Below are positions 171 to 28,667 of a DNA stretch of 35,570 nt, in pieces. The position numbers were made by a program, and so were the translations under genes. Source of the DNA: a virus (taxonomy: Duplodnaviria > Caudoviricetes); the IMG/VR virus record IMGVR_UViG_3300023261_000005, positions 1 to 35,570 of that record, one strand, 5' to 3'. Under the pieces are notes generated by a model. It searched no databases. It was not told where the DNA came from and worked only from the letters and a program-made list of their open reading frames with translations. The first letter of the stretch is position 1. Each line of letters begins with the position of its first letter.

Positions 171-301
171 AGTCGCTCGAAGAGATCCAGGCGAAGCTCG
201 CCGAGACTCGCGGCTGGGTGGACGAGAACGAGGACACTGGCGCATCCGAGTTCGGCGTCGAGCTCGGATGGTTCCAGGCCCTCGAGTGGGTGCTCGCATG
301 A
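167..301 (+). CDS. small hypothetical phage protein (44 aa, MKSLEEIQAKL...ALEWVLA)
   Basis: GGAGGAG SD upstream; ATGA overlaps at both ends; trimmed from ORF 65..301. Confidence 0.7.
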   Translation: MKSLEEIQAKLAETRGWVDENEDTGASEFGVELGWFQALEWVLA

Positions 302-531
302 GCGACGATCCGGGGGGTGTGGTTCCCCCATTCCTTGACAAGGACTGGCGTGCGATGCGCGCTCACCTCAACCTGGCCGCCGCACACGCGGCGGCCGGGG
401 CCGACGCCTCAACAGTCGAGGATGTCCGGCGAAGCACGAGCGCAGCACAGGTCGCGCTCATGGACGCCGACTTCATTCGTCGTCGCATCGAGCGACAGGA
501 ATCCGTCCACACGAATGGGAGTGGAGCATGA
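298..531 (+). CDS. hypothetical protein (77 aa) ending in repeat-encoded HTNGSGA
   Basis: ATGA coupling at 298-301 and 528-531. Confidence 0.7.
   Translation: MSDDPGGVVPPFLDKDWRAMRAHLNLAAAHAAAGADASTVEDVRRSTSAAQVALMDADFIRRRIERQESVHTNGSGA
508..531 (+). repeat. 24-bp junction repeat copy 1, CACACGAATGGGAGTGGAGCATGA
   Basis: Read directly; contains SD-like GGGAG plus overlapping stop/start ATGA. Confidence 0.95.
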
Positions 532-719
532 GTTACGACGCGCCCCAGCCGATCGCTGAACCGCCGCGCTGTCAGGCGCAGTGTGCCGAGGATGTGAGCG
601 ACTTCCCGTTCCTGACTTACCACGCCTGCATCAAGGGTCAGCACATGCCGCACCACCACTTGTGCAAGTGCGACTACGGGTGGTCCGACGAGAACCACAC
701 GAATGGGAGCCAAGCATGA
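528..719 (+). CDS. small Cys/His-rich (putative Zn-binding) hypothetical protein, 63 aa
   Basis: C..C...HAC....H..HHHLCKC...W pattern; flanked by repeats 1 and 2. Confidence 0.75.
   Translation: MSYDAPQPIAEPPRCQAQCAEDVSDFPFLTYHACIKGQHMPHHHLCKCDYGWSDENHTNGSQA
696..719 (+). repeat. 24-bp junction repeat copy 2, CACACGAATGGGAGCCAAGCATGA
   Basis: 21/24 identical to copy 1. Confidence 0.95.
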
Positions 720-898
720 AGTACATCCTGGATATCACCTGGCATGTCAGCGGGATGCCCCCTCTCGTCGGGCCGTTCGATACGCGGGTCGAGGCCGACG
801 ACTTCGCACGGCTCAACGTGCCGAACGGCTCGTGGGAAGTGCGTCCACTCACCGATCCGTACGGGCGTACCAGGCACACGAATGGGAGTGGAGCATGA
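716..898 (+). CDS. small hypothetical protein (60 aa, MKYILDITWH...VGPFDTRVEADDFA...)
   Basis: Start supplied by repeat 2 and stop by repeat 3; GPFxTxxEAxxFA is a motif common in small phage proteins. Confidence 0.75.
   Translation: MKYILDITWHVSGMPPLVGPFDTRVEADDFARLNVPNGSWEVRPLTDPYGRTRHTNGSGA
875..898 (+). repeat. 24-bp junction repeat copy 3, CACACGAATGGGAGTGGAGCATGA
   Basis: Identical to copy 1. Confidence 0.95.
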
Positions 899-1077
899 GC
901 GTCACGCACACCGTCACAATCCACTGCGACCGCTGCGGCCACTGGGTTCACGCGGAACGTCGCGATGTCACCAAGCTCGGATGGACGCGGTGGAAGGAGG
1001 GGCGATCCTCGATGCACCACTGCCCATCCTGCACGGTCGCCGTCGCGCTAGATCACACGAATGGGAGCGAAGCATGA
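895..1077 (+). CDS. small zinc-ribbon protein (60 aa, CDRC...GW...HHCPSC)
   Basis: Two CxxC pairs; bounded by repeats 3 and 4. Confidence 0.8.
   Translation: MSVTHTVTIHCDRCGHWVHAERRDVTKLGWTRWKEGRSSMHHCPSCTVAVALDHTNGSEA
1054..1077 (+). repeat. 24-bp junction repeat copy 4, CACACGAATGGGAGCGAAGCATGA
   Basis: 23/24 identical to copy 2. Confidence 0.95.
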
Positions 1078-1286
1078 AGATCACGACCATCTGGACTCTG
1101 CCCGCGATGACGCTCGGTGAGCGCCTGCACCGCACCGGCGAATGGGCCGCGATCAAGGTCGCATGGGCACTCCCGCACCGGGTGCTCTACTGGGCCGCCG
1201 TGCGAGCCGCAGTCGCGGTAGAGCCGAACACAGACCCGTCCGGCGTGACGGTCGCGCAGATGATGGAGACCATCGGCCATGACTGA
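1074..1286 (+). CDS. hypothetical protein (70 aa, MKITTIWTLP...VAWALPHRVLYWAAVR...)
   Basis: Start within repeat 4; trimmed from ORF 744..1286. Confidence 0.75.
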   Translation: MKITTIWTLPAMTLGERLHRTGEWAAIKVAWALPHRVLYWAAVRAAVAVEPNTDPSGVTVAQMMETIGHD

Positions 1287-1422
1287 CACCCAACCGAACG
1301 ATCTAGCCGAGCAGGGCCGTCGCCTCGCGTCCAAGCGTGACGACCTGATCGCGGCGGGCGTGGACCCGTCTGATCTGCTGATCCCGCTGCACCCCCAACC
1401 GATTGAACAGGAGCCGACATGA
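1279..1422 (+). CDS. small hypothetical protein (47 aa, MTDTQPNDLAEQGRRL...EQEPT), not in ORF track
   Basis: Manual translation; GGAG SD, 8-bp overlap upstream, ATGA overlap with next gene; fills the gap exactly. Confidence 0.65.
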   Translation: MTDTQPNDLAEQGRRLASKRDDLIAAGVDPSDLLIPLHPQPIEQEPT

Positions 1423-1939: not shown

Positions 1940-2132
1940 TCCCCAGCCAGACGAGCACGCCGATCTCGAGGCCGAGCATCAGCAACACGGCCCACGGGAA
2001 CCACCCTTTGAACCCCGCCCCACCTCCGTCACCGGAGATGGGGCGGGGTTTTTCGCGTCCCACGCGCTGCACGCGGAACAGCCACGTCACCGACCACTTG
2101 GGTCGGCGATCCGGCTGCTCCTCCTCGGTCAC
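1926..2132 (-). CDS. small membrane protein (single C-terminal TM), candidate holin/lysis accessory
   Basis: GTGA overlap with the endolysin stop; hydrophobic WFPWAVLLMLGLEIGVLVWLGII. Confidence 0.55.
   Translation of the reverse strand: MTEEEQPDRRPKWSVTWLFRVQRVGREKPRPISGDGGGAGFKGWFPWAVLLMLGLEIGVLVWLGIIPR
2011..2053 (+). terminator. rho-independent terminator ending the plus-strand operon
   Basis: AACCCCGCCCCA-C-CTCCG-TCAC-CGGAG-A-TGGGGCGGGGTT hairpin with TTTTT at 2049-2053, ~70 bp after the last plus-strand gene. Confidence 0.85.
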
Positions 2133-3688
2133 ACGTCGAGTATGACGGTGTCGATCTCATCGCCGATCAGCCACGACGACTCGTTGCGCCAGCGGGTCAG
2201 CTGCGCCACCGATACGACGCGACTGTCAGCCGGAACCTCCGGGCACTCCGGGCACTCGCATCCCTCGCACGGGTCGATGATGATCCCGTCCTGCGGGTAG
2301 TCCTCGAAGTCGATGTCATCGCCACAGCTCGTGCTCATGAACTCGCTGTGCCGGTGATAGACGAACGTGTCCACCGCGTAGTACGCCCGGAGCGCATCCA
2401 GCAGCAGGTTCACGCTGTCGATCGTCTCCTGGCGATTCGGCGTGCCGACTACCTGGCCAACCACCGGGTCGACCTCGATGCCAATGAACCAGTTGCCGTC
2501 TGCTCCGGCATGGAAAGCCCGATCAGAGAGTGAGACCATCTGCGTTCGATGCCCCCCGCTGACGACAAAGTGGGCGCTGGTGGAGGCGGCAGGATTCTGG
2601 AACCAGGCGACGGTGCCGCTGTAGGTGTCCTGTCCATCGGTTCCGAAGTCATGAAGTACCACCTCTGTCTGGTCGGTCGGGAACCGCTCGCCATCCTGCC
2701 CTGACTCGTAGTTCTCTGGGGCGCACGGGACCACCTCAGTCACCACCGGGTCGAACGCCTCGAACGTGTACGCCGGGGGCGCCGGCTCCGGCGCCACCTC
2801 CGGCAGATCGTGTGTGCCCTGGTCGGTGAAGCCCCCCGCCCAGAACCAATTGCCGGCGTACGCGCCGCGGAACCAGACATCCTGGCCCTGCACCGCCTCG
2901 CCGTGCGCCCACCCGTTCATGTCGGCGATGGCGCCGCCGTCGAGGGTCTGCACCACCGGCACCGCCGTGGTCGGCTCGCTGCGCCCGTTCGCCGGGTTTA
3001 CGCCCACCTGTCGCTGCGTCGGCCCCACGTCGGGCACCGTCTCGTTGAGGTCAGTGAGGTCGTGCGTGCCGGTGTCAGTGAAGCCGCCGGACCAGAACCA
3101 GTCCCCGCTGAACGCGCCCCGGAACCAGACGCTGTTCCCGCTGACGTTCTCGCCGTAGACCCAGCCGTCCATCGTCGCCACGGTGCCGGGGTTCAGCTGC
3201 TGCGTTGCCGGGTTCGCCGTGCTCGGGTCATCGCGCCCGTTCGCCGGGTTCGGCCCCACCACGCGCTGGTTGCCGCCGACCGGGCCGCCGCCACCACCGC
3301 CGCCACCCACGTAGGCGCCAGCACCCTGCTCCACGCAGTTCCAGTAGTCGTCCGGCTCGCGCCGATTGCCCTGCGGGTACTCGACCTCATTGTGCAGATG
3401 CGGCCCTGTCGAGTTGCCAGTGTTCCCGACGTACGCGACGGTCGTGCCCTCGCTGACGCGGGTACCCTCGCCGGGGCCAGAGTGGTCAGGCAGGTGGAAG
3501 TTGCCGTCGACCTGCCCGTCGTCGTAGATCACGTAGCAGAAGTTGCCGCCGCGATCGTTGCTGCCGCGCGCACTGACGTAGCCTGCCCCCGTCGCCGGGA
3601 CCGGCGTCCAGGACGGGTAGGGAAAATCAACGCCCGTGTGGTTGGCGTATGTGGTCCAGATGTCGAGTGGTCTTTTGTGCTTCGCCAC
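2129..3688 (-). CDS. endolysin: M23 peptidase + two SH3-like cell-wall-binding repeats + Amidase_2-type N-acetylmuramoyl-L-alanine amidase
   Basis: HTGVD and GNSTGPHLH (M23); duplicated QRxVGxNPANGR...GW..GE.V.G..VWFRGA..G.WFW.GGFTD.GTHDL; VVLH...SAHFVV...AFHAG...IGIE...H...TSC (amidase). Confidence 0.92.
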   Translation of the reverse strand: MAKHKRPLDIWTTYANHTGVDFPYPSWTPVPATGAGYVSARGSNDRGGNFCYVIYDDGQVDGNFHLPDHSGPGEGTRVSEGTTVAYVGNTGNSTGPHLHNEVEYPQGNRREPDDYWNCVEQGAGAYVGGGGGGGGPVGGNQRVVGPNPANGRDDPSTANPATQQLNPGTVATMDGWVYGENVSGNSVWFRGAFSGDWFWSGGFTDTGTHDLTDLNETVPDVGPTQRQVGVNPANGRSEPTTAVPVVQTLDGGAIADMNGWAHGEAVQGQDVWFRGAYAGNWFWAGGFTDQGTHDLPEVAPEPAPPAYTFEAFDPVVTEVVPCAPENYESGQDGERFPTDQTEVVLHDFGTDGQDTYSGTVAWFQNPAASTSAHFVVSGGHRTQMVSLSDRAFHAGADGNWFIGIEVDPVVGQVVGTPNRQETIDSVNLLLDALRAYYAVDTFVYHRHSEFMSTSCGDDIDFEDYPQDGIIIDPCEGCECPECPEVPADSRVVSVAQLTRWRNESSWLIGDEIDTVILDV

Positions 3689-26012: not shown

Positions 26013-28667
26013 TCAGCCCTCCTTCTGGACTTGCGCCCGTGCCGCCGCCAGGCGACGCTGACGCACCTTCGCTCGCGCCGGTTCGGCGCGAGCAGCGATC
26101 TTCTCCCGGTGACGGTACTCGTCCACCGCTGTGCGGACGAGGCCAGCGACGAACTCCGGGTCCATCCCTATGTTCACCGCGAACGTCTCCACCGGCTCCG
26201 GCTTGAGTGCTCCGGCGCCGATCATCACCGTCTGCCGACCGGCGGATGCCGCCAGCTGACGCACCGGGAGGCCCGGGGTGTTCACGACGGGGACGCCGAT
26301 GAGTTCGAGGTTGCCGCGCACTTCACGCCAGTCACCCGAGACTGCACCGATCGCACGCATCTTGGTGATGTCCTCGTCGGTCACGTCCGGCGGGATGATG
26401 CCGGAGAACCAGACGCCGTAAGCGTTCTCGCCGACGTTCACGAATGCGCGGACAGCATCCGGCTTGTCGTAGAACGCCGACGCTGCGGCCATGCTCATGC
26501 GCTCCGAGGCATGTCCGCCCCAGCTGAGGCAACCGACGAACTGCTCGCCCTCGGTGGTGTCGATCACGCCCTTCTTGAAGTAGCCGTAGTCGGTCGTCGA
26601 CGTCGGCACCTCCTGGCAGAACCCCGTGATCCCGACGTGGCAGACGCCCCACTCGCTGACGTAGCCGTGGATGCGGCGCGTCTCGCGGTCGATCTTCATC
26701 GGGTAGGCGCGGTCGAGTGTCGGCTCGGAGAAGTATTCGGCCGGATAGACCTTGTGCTCCGGCTGGACCAGTCGCGCGACCGGTGCGCCGGCAGCCGCGA
26801 TGACGGATGCGCTAATCTTGCCGCGGTGCTGTGCCGGCCAGAAGCCGAGTGCCTCCTTATGGAGGTTGGCACAGGCGCCCGCCAGCCAGTCAGGGTTGGC
26901 AATGTACTTCGCCAGCTGCGTCCTGCAGCGATTGAAGTCTCCTGGCTGCCCCCACCGGATCTTCGAGGCACCAGCACCCTTGGTCCAGTAGTTGCGGAGC
27001 CGCTGGGTGGGCACCGGATGGGTGATCCACCCGGGAGCGTCCCTGGTGCCGGGGGCGAATGCCTCGCCCTTGGCCGATGCCCGGAACAGGCCGGGGATCT
27101 CGGCCAGGAACTCGGCCTGCTCCTCGGCAGTCAGGTCACCGGGCCACGGCTTGAGCGACCAGTCCTCGGGGAGCTCGATGTCCGGGCAGTCGAGCGCGGC
27201 GGCACGCTTACGGATGTGCGCCTTGGTCGCCTCGGGATCGCTGGCCCGACCGATGGCCTGGATCGCGTTGGCGAGATCCTCGCAGTTCTCGATGGGGTAG
27301 CTGCCGTCCGGCATGGCGTTACCCTGCTCGGCCTGCTTCTCGCGCTCCTCAGGTGGGAACTCGCGGTACTCGCCGGTCGCGCATCCGCACGCCTGCAGCG
27401 CCGCGGCCTGCGCAGCAAGCTGCTCCTCGCTGAGATCCTCCTGGAACTCATGACCGAGCGCGGTGTACGCCTCCTGGAACGCGGGGATGGGAACGATCGT
27501 CGCACCTGCGACGCGCATCTTCGAGAACACCGTCTCGCCCGGGTTCATCATGTCGAGGATGGCGTCCATGACATCGTCGCCCTCGCCGGTGGGCTCCTCG
27601 GGAATCTCGATCTCGGCGTCGTCCCCGTCGATCGAGATGCCACGGATGGTTCCGTCGACCAGACCGTCGATGACCTCCTGCGCGAACGGCTTGGTCAGTA
27701 CGACCGCACCACGGAACCGCCAAGAGTCGGTGGCCTCATCGCGCCACGCCTCGTCGATCCGGCCGACCGTGACGACATCGCTGGTCTGCCCGCCGTGCGT
27801 GCCGACCGTCTCGTAGCGGAGCGGGAGCGGCAGCGGTCGGGTGGACAGTGCACCGAGCGCGAACTTGCGACCGTCGCCCGTGCTCACGCCTTCCGGTGCG
27901 AGCACGCCGTGGACGGGAATCTCGGTGATGAGCTCCTCGCCGTCCTCCGGCTCGTCGATGTCCGGCAGTTCGGCCTCGTCGGCGGGCTCGACGGCGATGT
28001 CCGTCTCGTCCACGACGGCGGCTGCCCTCACAATGTCGTAGCCCTCGACAACGTCAGGATTGTCGTCGATCTCGTCGTCAGGACCGATCGCATACGTCGT
28101 GCTGCTCATGGCTTCTCCATCCCTGCCTGCCGGCTGTGCCAAGCACCGGCATTGGATCCAAATCTCGGGGTCTCCGACCGGTTCCCCGGGGTGGCGCAGC
28201 TTCTCACCGCTCACACTGAATGTCCCACCAATGGGAACGATCTGTCCATCGGTGGCGACGTGAATCTCACGCACCGAATCGTCGTGCATGGTCACCCAGC
28301 GCTTGAAACGGACCCCCCGAGAGAAAGCGCCGGCCACTGTTGCCGAGTTGACCGCGTATCCGCTCAGCCAGTACGTGATCCGGTTAACCTGGGCCTCTTC
28401 GACATCCATTCCGGGGTCGGATGTCTTCGCCAGGCTCGCCCGGAGGCTCTTGCGGAAGCGTGCGAGCGCTACCCCGCGATTTCCGTCGTCGGATTCCTCG
28501 TCGAACACCTGCAGCCACAACTGGGAGGCCGCCATGACGAGATCCTCGTCCCAGTCGGGGTCCCCAGCGAGCAAACGGTGCAGCGCGTCATCGACATAGG
28601 GCTCGAGAGCCTCATCGGCGCTCTCGAGGAGTGATTTCCGAGCGGCAGCGAAGGAAATCGGGTCCAT
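26013..28667 (-). CDS. MuF-like minor head protein / capsid maturation protease fusion (884 aa)
   Basis: KRWVTMHD..VR..H...DGQ.VP....F...LRHPG.P......IQCRC (MuF); GVLAPEG..TGDGR.F...LPL...H...VGRID (protease); additional PDGSYPI, YW..G.G..KIRWG.PGDF.RC and SGDWR domains. Confidence 0.88.
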   Translation of the reverse strand: MDPISFAAARKSLLESADEALEPYVDDALHRLLAGDPDWDEDLVMAASQLWLQVFDEESDDGNRGVALARFRKSLRASLAKTSDPGMDVEEAQVNRITYWLSGYAVNSATVAGAFSRGVRFKRWVTMHDDSVREIHVATDGQIVPIGGTFSVSGEKLRHPGEPVGDPEIWIQCRCLAQPAGRDGEAMSSTTYAIGPDDEIDDNPDVVEGYDIVRAAAVVDETDIAVEPADEAELPDIDEPEDGEELITEIPVHGVLAPEGVSTGDGRKFALGALSTRPLPLPLRYETVGTHGGQTSDVVTVGRIDEAWRDEATDSWRFRGAVVLTKPFAQEVIDGLVDGTIRGISIDGDDAEIEIPEEPTGEGDDVMDAILDMMNPGETVFSKMRVAGATIVPIPAFQEAYTALGHEFQEDLSEEQLAAQAAALQACGCATGEYREFPPEEREKQAEQGNAMPDGSYPIENCEDLANAIQAIGRASDPEATKAHIRKRAAALDCPDIELPEDWSLKPWPGDLTAEEQAEFLAEIPGLFRASAKGEAFAPGTRDAPGWITHPVPTQRLRNYWTKGAGASKIRWGQPGDFNRCRTQLAKYIANPDWLAGACANLHKEALGFWPAQHRGKISASVIAAAGAPVARLVQPEHKVYPAEYFSEPTLDRAYPMKIDRETRRIHGYVSEWGVCHVGITGFCQEVPTSTTDYGYFKKGVIDTTEGEQFVGCLSWGGHASERMSMAAASAFYDKPDAVRAFVNVGENAYGVWFSGIIPPDVTDEDITKMRAIGAVSGDWREVRGNLELIGVPVVNTPGLPVRQLAASAGRQTVMIGAGALKPEPVETFAVNIGMDPEFVAGLVRTAVDEYRHREKIAARAEPARAKVRQRRLAAARAQVQKEG

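Follow-up and report, generated by a model that had tools for sequence, protein, structure and literature searches.

As judged from sequence comparisons, small genes are gained, lost and swapped at a shared coding junction among otherwise unrelated soil phages. The junction lies in a window of 35,570 nucleotides, the whole stretch of DNA analysed here (IMG/VR record IMGVR_UViG_3300023261_000005, 57% complete by the tool's estimate), which is probably from an uncultured phage of the Microbacterium type. As the initial annotation had described, a 24-bp sequence, referred to here as motif A, occurs in four exact copies (Table 1) with spacings of 188, 179 and 179 bp. None of 100 shuffled controls had any match to it at up to three mismatches, and the window has no fifth copy at up to five mismatches. 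Each copy forms the end of one gene together with the Shine-Dalgarno sequence and ATG of the next, again as described: in the frame of the upstream gene it reads H-T-N-G-S-x-A-stop, it contains GGGAG, and its stop shares the sequence ATGA with the start that follows. The three enclosed genes had been called unrelated to each other, and they show no likeness beyond chance (119, 20 and 159 of 200 shuffles score at least as high as the real pairs). Tandem duplication, in which the units would align along their length, was rejected on this ground. Invariant AAT and GCA codons had been taken as signs of constraint on the DNA. This stands for AAT, which makes up 15% of Asn codons (247 counted in 13 long window genes), and falls for GCA, which is forced by the ATGA overlap and so gives no evidence of constraint.

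Table 1. Features of the junction array and its surroundings in the window (L058 is another locus carrying the motif)
Feature	Position	Strand	Remarks
77-aa anchor gene	298..531	+	first junction is its tail
Junction A, copy 1	508..531	+	holds 14-bp core (508-521), SD and overlapping stop and start; 2.0-kb difference from L058 lies here
Cassette gene 1, 63 aa	528..719	+	Cys/His-rich, no family; start 99% identical in L058, with another upstream gene there
Junction A, copy 2	696..719	+	exact 24-mer
Cassette gene 2, 60 aa	716..898	+	weak match to phrog_10621
Junction A, copy 3	875..898	+	exact 24-mer
Cassette gene 3, 60 aa	895..1077	+	two CxxC motifs, likely zinc-binding
Junction A, copy 4	1054..1077	+	exact 24-mer
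70-aa gene after last junction copy	1074..1286	+	own C-terminus; 41% identical to Gordonia phage TinyDot gp49
47-aa gene	1279..1422	+	one module between two copies of motif B
Motif B copy	1291..1304	+	reads QPNDL; just after start codon
Motif B copy	1396..1422	+	reads QPIEQ; runs into GGAG and ATGA overlap
Inverted repeat, likely terminator	2011..2050		closes small-gene arm before convergent endolysin
Endolysin	2129-3688	minus	convergent with small-gene arm

The array forms the end of a convergent arm of small genes ahead of the likely terminator, and the structural genes, from terminase to endolysin, are on the minus strand. The deposited capsids closest to that of the window are from Microbacterium phages, at no more than 40% identity, and the array cargo of relatives has 75-89% DNA identity with Microbacterium phage genes; together these likenesses point to a Microbacterium-like host. 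The matches of cassette gene 2 are to Gordonia phages only and all weak. Two complete relatives were available for comparison, a close one (G002; capsid 88%, terminase 91%) and a distant one (G001; capsid 39%). Two further genes of the window, both on the minus strand, may be mentioned here. An ORF of 68 aa (1926-2132) behind the endolysin has a hydrophobic C-terminus, is conserved in G002 and overlaps the terminator-like repeat; it likely encodes a lysis membrane protein. An 884-aa protein (26013-28667), the C-terminal part of which matches head maturation protease profiles, is likely a minor capsid-protease fusion as described for cluster EG.

In metagenome contigs the exact 24-mer gave 18 rows, of which one is the record of the window itself and two are repeats; the remaining 15 are other contigs, many with longer arrays and variant cores, and cassette content and order differ between loci. 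Scans of viral sequences for motif A yielded nine further loci, kept after their context was viewed, for a total of 25 loci, which at up to two mismatches have 79 forward copies versus one reverse copy. The 65 non-redundant A copies comprise 14 core types; 63 read in frame into a stop within 27 nt, and a start codon lies 17-26 nt from the core in 63, both counts being partly favoured by the choice of the nine viral loci. Units running from one A copy to the next number 57, in 48 families, and the arrays have different anchors, such as an exonuclease (L058), an SSB-like gene (L046) and gene 298-531. The 14-bp core occurs in phages that have almost no proteins in common with the window phage: carriers G003 and G005-G009 have only 0-4 called proteins that also occur in the window's group. 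Integrase matches in G003, G006 and G009 and a repressor in G008 indicate that temperate phages are also carriers; in G003 (L067-L068) there are three tyrosine-integrase matches in one 37-kb phage record. Three records that are at least 90% complete have two, two and one matches to motif A, and two more records have four and one.

Searches of deposited sequences gave little. The full 24-mer had no blastn match in 50,697 deposited phage records and a 22-aa tail query found no full junction in deposited phages, both being short queries that miss degenerate copies. Word-index protein searches returned nothing beyond the query itself or the L058 orthologue, and there were no RNA holders of the sequence among the matches listed. 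A looser pattern gave 32 rows in viral contigs, of which 31 were dropped as lone hits in AT-rich DNA that lack the stop/start geometry. Also dropped, for want of this geometry or for low GC, were L035, L039, L041, L073, L078, L082, L083, L085, L088, L090-L092, L102, L103, L105 and L107; duplicates left out of the counts were L040, L072, L077, L080, L081, L084, L086, L089, L104, L106 and L108. A scan of GTDB gave two single matches in non-actinobacterial genomes, which we treated as probable chance. On a 4-kb MAG contig, a lone near-perfect junction precedes a 261-aa cellular-looking gene (L070 1455, minus strand, oriented); it is either chance or a stray capture.

The initial annotation had proposed an array in which genes are shuffled at the repeat, and relatives do differ in content and order with breakpoints there. 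Between L058 and the window, where 323-521 match at 95% and 507-642 at 99%, gene order is not invariant: L058 has 2.0 kb of extra cassettes between the two matching parts, and gene 298-531 is followed there by another cassette than in the window. The two flanks overlap over the core, the left match reaching to the core end and the right one beginning at the core start. Placed on L058, contigs of sequencing run X1, from which the window may derive, and of X2, a run from another study, both show a joint of 136 to 2141, which is the window's form. X1 also covers the long form, so that the repeat-to-repeat difference is present, at the level of contigs, within one run. All six of the loose ends of X1 contigs on L058, among those listed, are at edges of motif A or B, and one X1 contig departs from the window at 710, just past the core of copy 2. 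Losses between the window's own four copies were not found among the matches listed for X1, and a third run (X3) matched only with short fragments from other organisms. The motif forms clusters and is not scattered before unlinked genes, complete relatives having one or two copies.

Comparison of loci gave 15 pair rows, eight with a common upstream gene and different downstream genes and seven with the reverse; two of the 15 rows repeat a case by way of near-duplicate loci. Internal ends of homology (n=38) fall in motif windows in both partners in 27 cases (eight of them B/B), in one partner in four and in neither in seven, the windows, of A or its sister B, covering 12% of array bases; for motif A the count of 27 is inflated, since gene ends are preferred breakpoints in any case and an alignment runs on through a motif that both partners have. 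Core alleles go together with the upstream gene in only part of the pairs, and across the 15 pair rows the allele patterns of core and spacer fit no single crossover point, a result that point mutation could mimic. Exchange without the motif occurs as well. Gene 167-301 is absent from L058 and from an X1 contig; this indel has no motif, lies between GCATGA overlaps and joins 158 to 323, at a depth of 24 as against about 3 for the gene. In G002, moreover, gene order here is not that of the window.

Our results indicate that motif A is kept as DNA and not as peptide, since rare codons are fixed while residues change. The first four codons have undergone 35 non-synonymous versus four synonymous changes, counted over copies that share descent and are not independent. 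Among 70 hits defined by the peptide only, which were not dereplicated and each locus of which was first found through one DNA match, CAC, xCG and AGY are each present in 70/70 and AAT/GAT in 64/70. The tail appears to be acquired on joining. The L058 exonuclease ends in it, whereas its orthologues in G002 and G001 lack it. The annotation had suggested looking for cargo homologues without the HTNGSxA tail, and these exist: HTNGS is in none of the 11 short homologues of gene 895-1077 inspected (of 13 hits), and the G002 orthologue of gene 298-531 also lacks the tail. Further cargo homologues without the motif are DelaGarza gp3, Hubbs gp111 and TinyDot gp49, the last with no motif ahead of the gene. 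Hubbs gp111 stands alone, and in L044 it is fused in frame to the orthologue of gene 298-531. Microbacterium phage PhillyPhilly gp81 has 25 codons in common with an L058 cassette, and its end (L110 1633-1672) resembles the junction so that only one of 300 shuffles scores as high. This end may be a decayed B+A junction in a cultured phage cluster, which, if true, would give an experimental system.

Word counts revealed a second one-way motif, motif B (CC-VAACCGA-NN-G), which is read as QPSEP, QPSDP or QPTVQ and the two window copies of which the initial annotation had missed. In 47 copies defined by peptide, Gln is encoded by CAA in 26/32 (background 6%), CCG is found in 44/47 and Ser is AGY in 22/22. 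Motif B lies 18 nt before motif A in 11 of the 65 A copies. The two motifs align in frame, an alignment preferred to an offset one that we dropped, and A/B hybrids (QPDGS) occur. Within reading frames motif B separates modules of 14-45 aa, many Cys/His-rich, of which 16 segments were listed. One and the same module can have different partners (L042/L045, L044/L058, L044/L047, L052/L056/L058), and L044 and L045, which are 99.5% alike, differ by a B-to-B block. Motif B likely splices pieces of genes into new, predicted chimeric proteins.

Our favoured reading, at a probability of about 0.65, is that the junction is a self-spreading coding linker across which small genes are exchanged by homologous recombination through the phages' own annealing proteins. 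An identity of 14-25 bp would let annealases of the RecT, Sak or Sak4 type join two junctions; RecET recombination on 5-13 bp is put at about 1e-8, as cited in PMC2327257. Replication slippage would be an alternative route for losses. Each crossover at a junction would keep both genes in frame and coupled, so that the products would survive, and a gene with a junction at each end would become portable among co-infecting phages and carry the junction to new places. The junction sequence could thereby spread without a dedicated enzyme. New genes would first be captured rarely, by illegitimate recombination, and would be retained only where the frame is preserved. We infer recombination between repeats from its end products. 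Whatever the mechanism, mosaic breakpoints cluster at the ends of genes. Against the annealase model are the shuffling without a motif (gene 167-301, the G002 order and the seven of 38 ends) and the strong fixing of some positions together with a near-palindrome, which homology alone leaves unexplained.

Homologous exchange is favoured by the presence of different annealases, with no common dedicated enzyme among the proteins scanned and allele patterns that do not follow one cut point. No recombinase had been visible in the initial annotation, and none of PF00589, PF00239 and PF00078 has a match in the window's own record (57% complete) or in G001 or G002 (100%), so that both complete relatives also lack a tyrosine or serine recombinase. 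The search for a co-occurring annealase gave RecT with an exonuclease, SSB and RusA in G002, a Rad52-family protein in G001, RecT and RecE in G003 and Sak4 in L055; G006-G008 have an exonuclease VIII match and no named annealase among the proteins scanned. No annealase was seen in the window's own record (57% complete), and those of the relatives lie in the half of the genome that is missing from it. Annealases thus differ among carriers, and the proteins scanned (69 and 61 longer proteins) include no common dedicated enzyme. A phrog_826 HNH-type gene, a candidate nickase, is just upstream of the unlike annealases of G002 (L059 18888-19472, RecT) and G001 (L063 15003-15548, Rad52 family). G001, which has no integrase match, also has a DprA-family gene (PF02481; L064 9355-10266).

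It is also conceivable, though doubtful, that A and B form a two-site plug standard common to soil actinophage lineages, in which a protein reads CA-NN-CG-NN-TG, motif A swaps genes and motif B splices Cys/His modules of 20-45 aa in frame. If true, the arrays would build new proteins in a manner like exon shuffling, without introns or integrase. In an unlikely rival reading, a phage or host nuclease or recombinase cuts or binds this near-palindrome of A and B, and the junction would be a true hot spot or capture site. The pattern CANNCGNNTG fits 57 of the 65 A and 12 of the 47 B copies, numbers that rise to 60 and 28 if position 9 may also be C. Between 1 and 2130 the window has five near-palindrome sites, each of them an A or B copy, against 15 in the other 33 kb, and the two variable core positions are symmetric around the central CG. 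The near-palindrome was noticed after the fact, however, in copies that share descent (14 core types). The phrog_826 gene before unlike annealases in both G001 and G002 would suit such a protein, as would arrays that begin at new places without an earlier copy (the exonuclease, L058 versus G002). Yet neither G001 nor G002 matches the three enzyme profiles above, the most widely shared called proteins in the nine carrier records are the tape measure (five records) and SSB (four), and the crossover intervals have no one common point.

Start-associated sequences (SAS) of cluster K mycobacteriophages and of Microbacterium EF phages, which have a proposed role in translation initiation (PMC3203893, PMC7302621), suggest another reading: the repeat would be a translation or regulator element that only marks gene ends, where illegitimate recombination is kept. 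According to the available parts of these papers, SAS are likewise short one-way motifs over the ribosome site, a few bases before the ATG of non-structural actinophage genes. The narrow spacing to the start codon and the bias for one strand agree with this reading, motif-free indels adjoin the array, and folding of the start regions is slightly weaker than in G002 (-9.2 versus -10.5 kcal/mol, p=0.065). SAS have another sequence, however, and 10-19 copies spread over the right arm in the text available (PMC3203893, PMC7302621), with 11-19 per genome given in PMC3203893, whereas complete relatives of the window manage with one or two copies, and the window's own are tandem, coding and at indel breakpoints. 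Such an element predicts neither indel flanks that overlap the core nor B copies inside frames with no start behind them, and we regard it as quite unlikely to be the whole explanation. The translation and exchange roles can both hold, as a good start region would help a junction to persist.

That selection on the proteins maintains the tail HTNGSxA as a peptide signal, be it for degradation, for packaging or for binding a partner, is very improbable. Nearly all copies are in frame close to a stop, a cultured homologue that lacks the DNA motif has H-Q-G-S at its end, and one of the 11 homologues of gene 895-1077 ends R-P-D-G-S-Y-W-R; the excess of non-synonymous changes and the codons fixed in peptide-defined copies of both A (CAC) and B (CAA, AGY) argue against it. 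An assembly artefact, an amplification tag or plain tandem duplication is hardly credible: although all multi-copy arrays are from short-read metagenomes, in which paths across shared cassettes can be chimeric, and the full 24-mer is absent by blastn from the deposited phages, a separate assembly has one contig that agrees fully with the window over 674-2157, thus spanning copies 3 and 4, and a second that spans copy 1, the window's form of the joint recurs in the second study (X2), frame, strand and start geometry hold, and the branching itself is real, whatever doubt attaches to complete paths.

Integron cassette arrays consist of single unrelated genes with one repeat per gene and variable order and content. 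The array studied here is alike in these respects, and differs in having no integrase match in the window's record, G001 or G002, no attC-like hairpin and a repeat inside coding sequence; the allele patterns of the 15 pair rows do not fit a fixed crossover point, though point mutation could mimic this. All six stretches examined for an attC-type hairpin fold, as RNA, no better than shuffles (z 0.01 to 1.80) and have no structure in common. The integron parallel drawn in the initial annotation is therefore conceptual only. Retroelement arrays (DGR, retron) differ as well, the reverse transcriptase profile PF00078 being matched in none of the three genomes searched. Of the other analogues named there, SAS fit in position and not in copy spread, and boundary or linker sequences fit in having a short conserved sequence at the gene boundaries of otherwise unlike modules; the lambdoid boundary papers are cited in PMC3029335.

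The PeSLs of T4-type phages are promoter and stem-loop terminator elements, for which mini-circles have been shown (PMC2839356, PMC4122927). In the text available they too are short repeats in variable regions that serve as exchange points for small orphan genes (PMC2839356), with no dedicated recombinase identified in the parts seen, and indels and replacements bounded by the repeat are found here also. The window repeat differs from PeSLs as so described: it is coding, has neither promoter match nor hairpin, lies within one coupled transcript, occurs in different phage lineages and is accompanied by a sister motif located within genes. A sigma-70-like scan found no promoter-like site in 1-2300 (other promoter types were outside its scope), the repeat has no stem-loop terminator, and Rfam gave no hits in 1-2200. 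The 3' ends of mycobacteriophage Island3 genes 67 and 68 have 60 bp in common, and the block between them is missing from Brujita, a difference ascribed in the accessible text to general recombination enzymes (PMC3029335). The geometry is the same as that of the window versus L058; as presented there, Island3 is a single case, whereas here one junction of 14-25 bp recurs in 57 units of 48 kinds in unrelated phages.

The junction is thus best read as a variant of boundary-sequence or PeSL shuffling and not as an integron. A literature search, with subscription papers and supplementary figures outside its scope, gave no description of the motif or of in-frame module shuffling at such a repeat. 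The linker is defined, at 14-25 bp, occurs in lytic as well as temperate lineages and differs within a single sample, and its sister motif lies at the joints of chimeric genes; these properties make the linker model testable. The junction is also a sequence tag for a pool of exchangeable accessory genes (48 kinds at 25 loci), which is worth screening for counter-defence functions. Among the array genes are L047 489-974 and L052 869-1057 (oriented), one of them joined behind motif B, the ends of which look like a piece of what we take to be an M23 peptidase domain.
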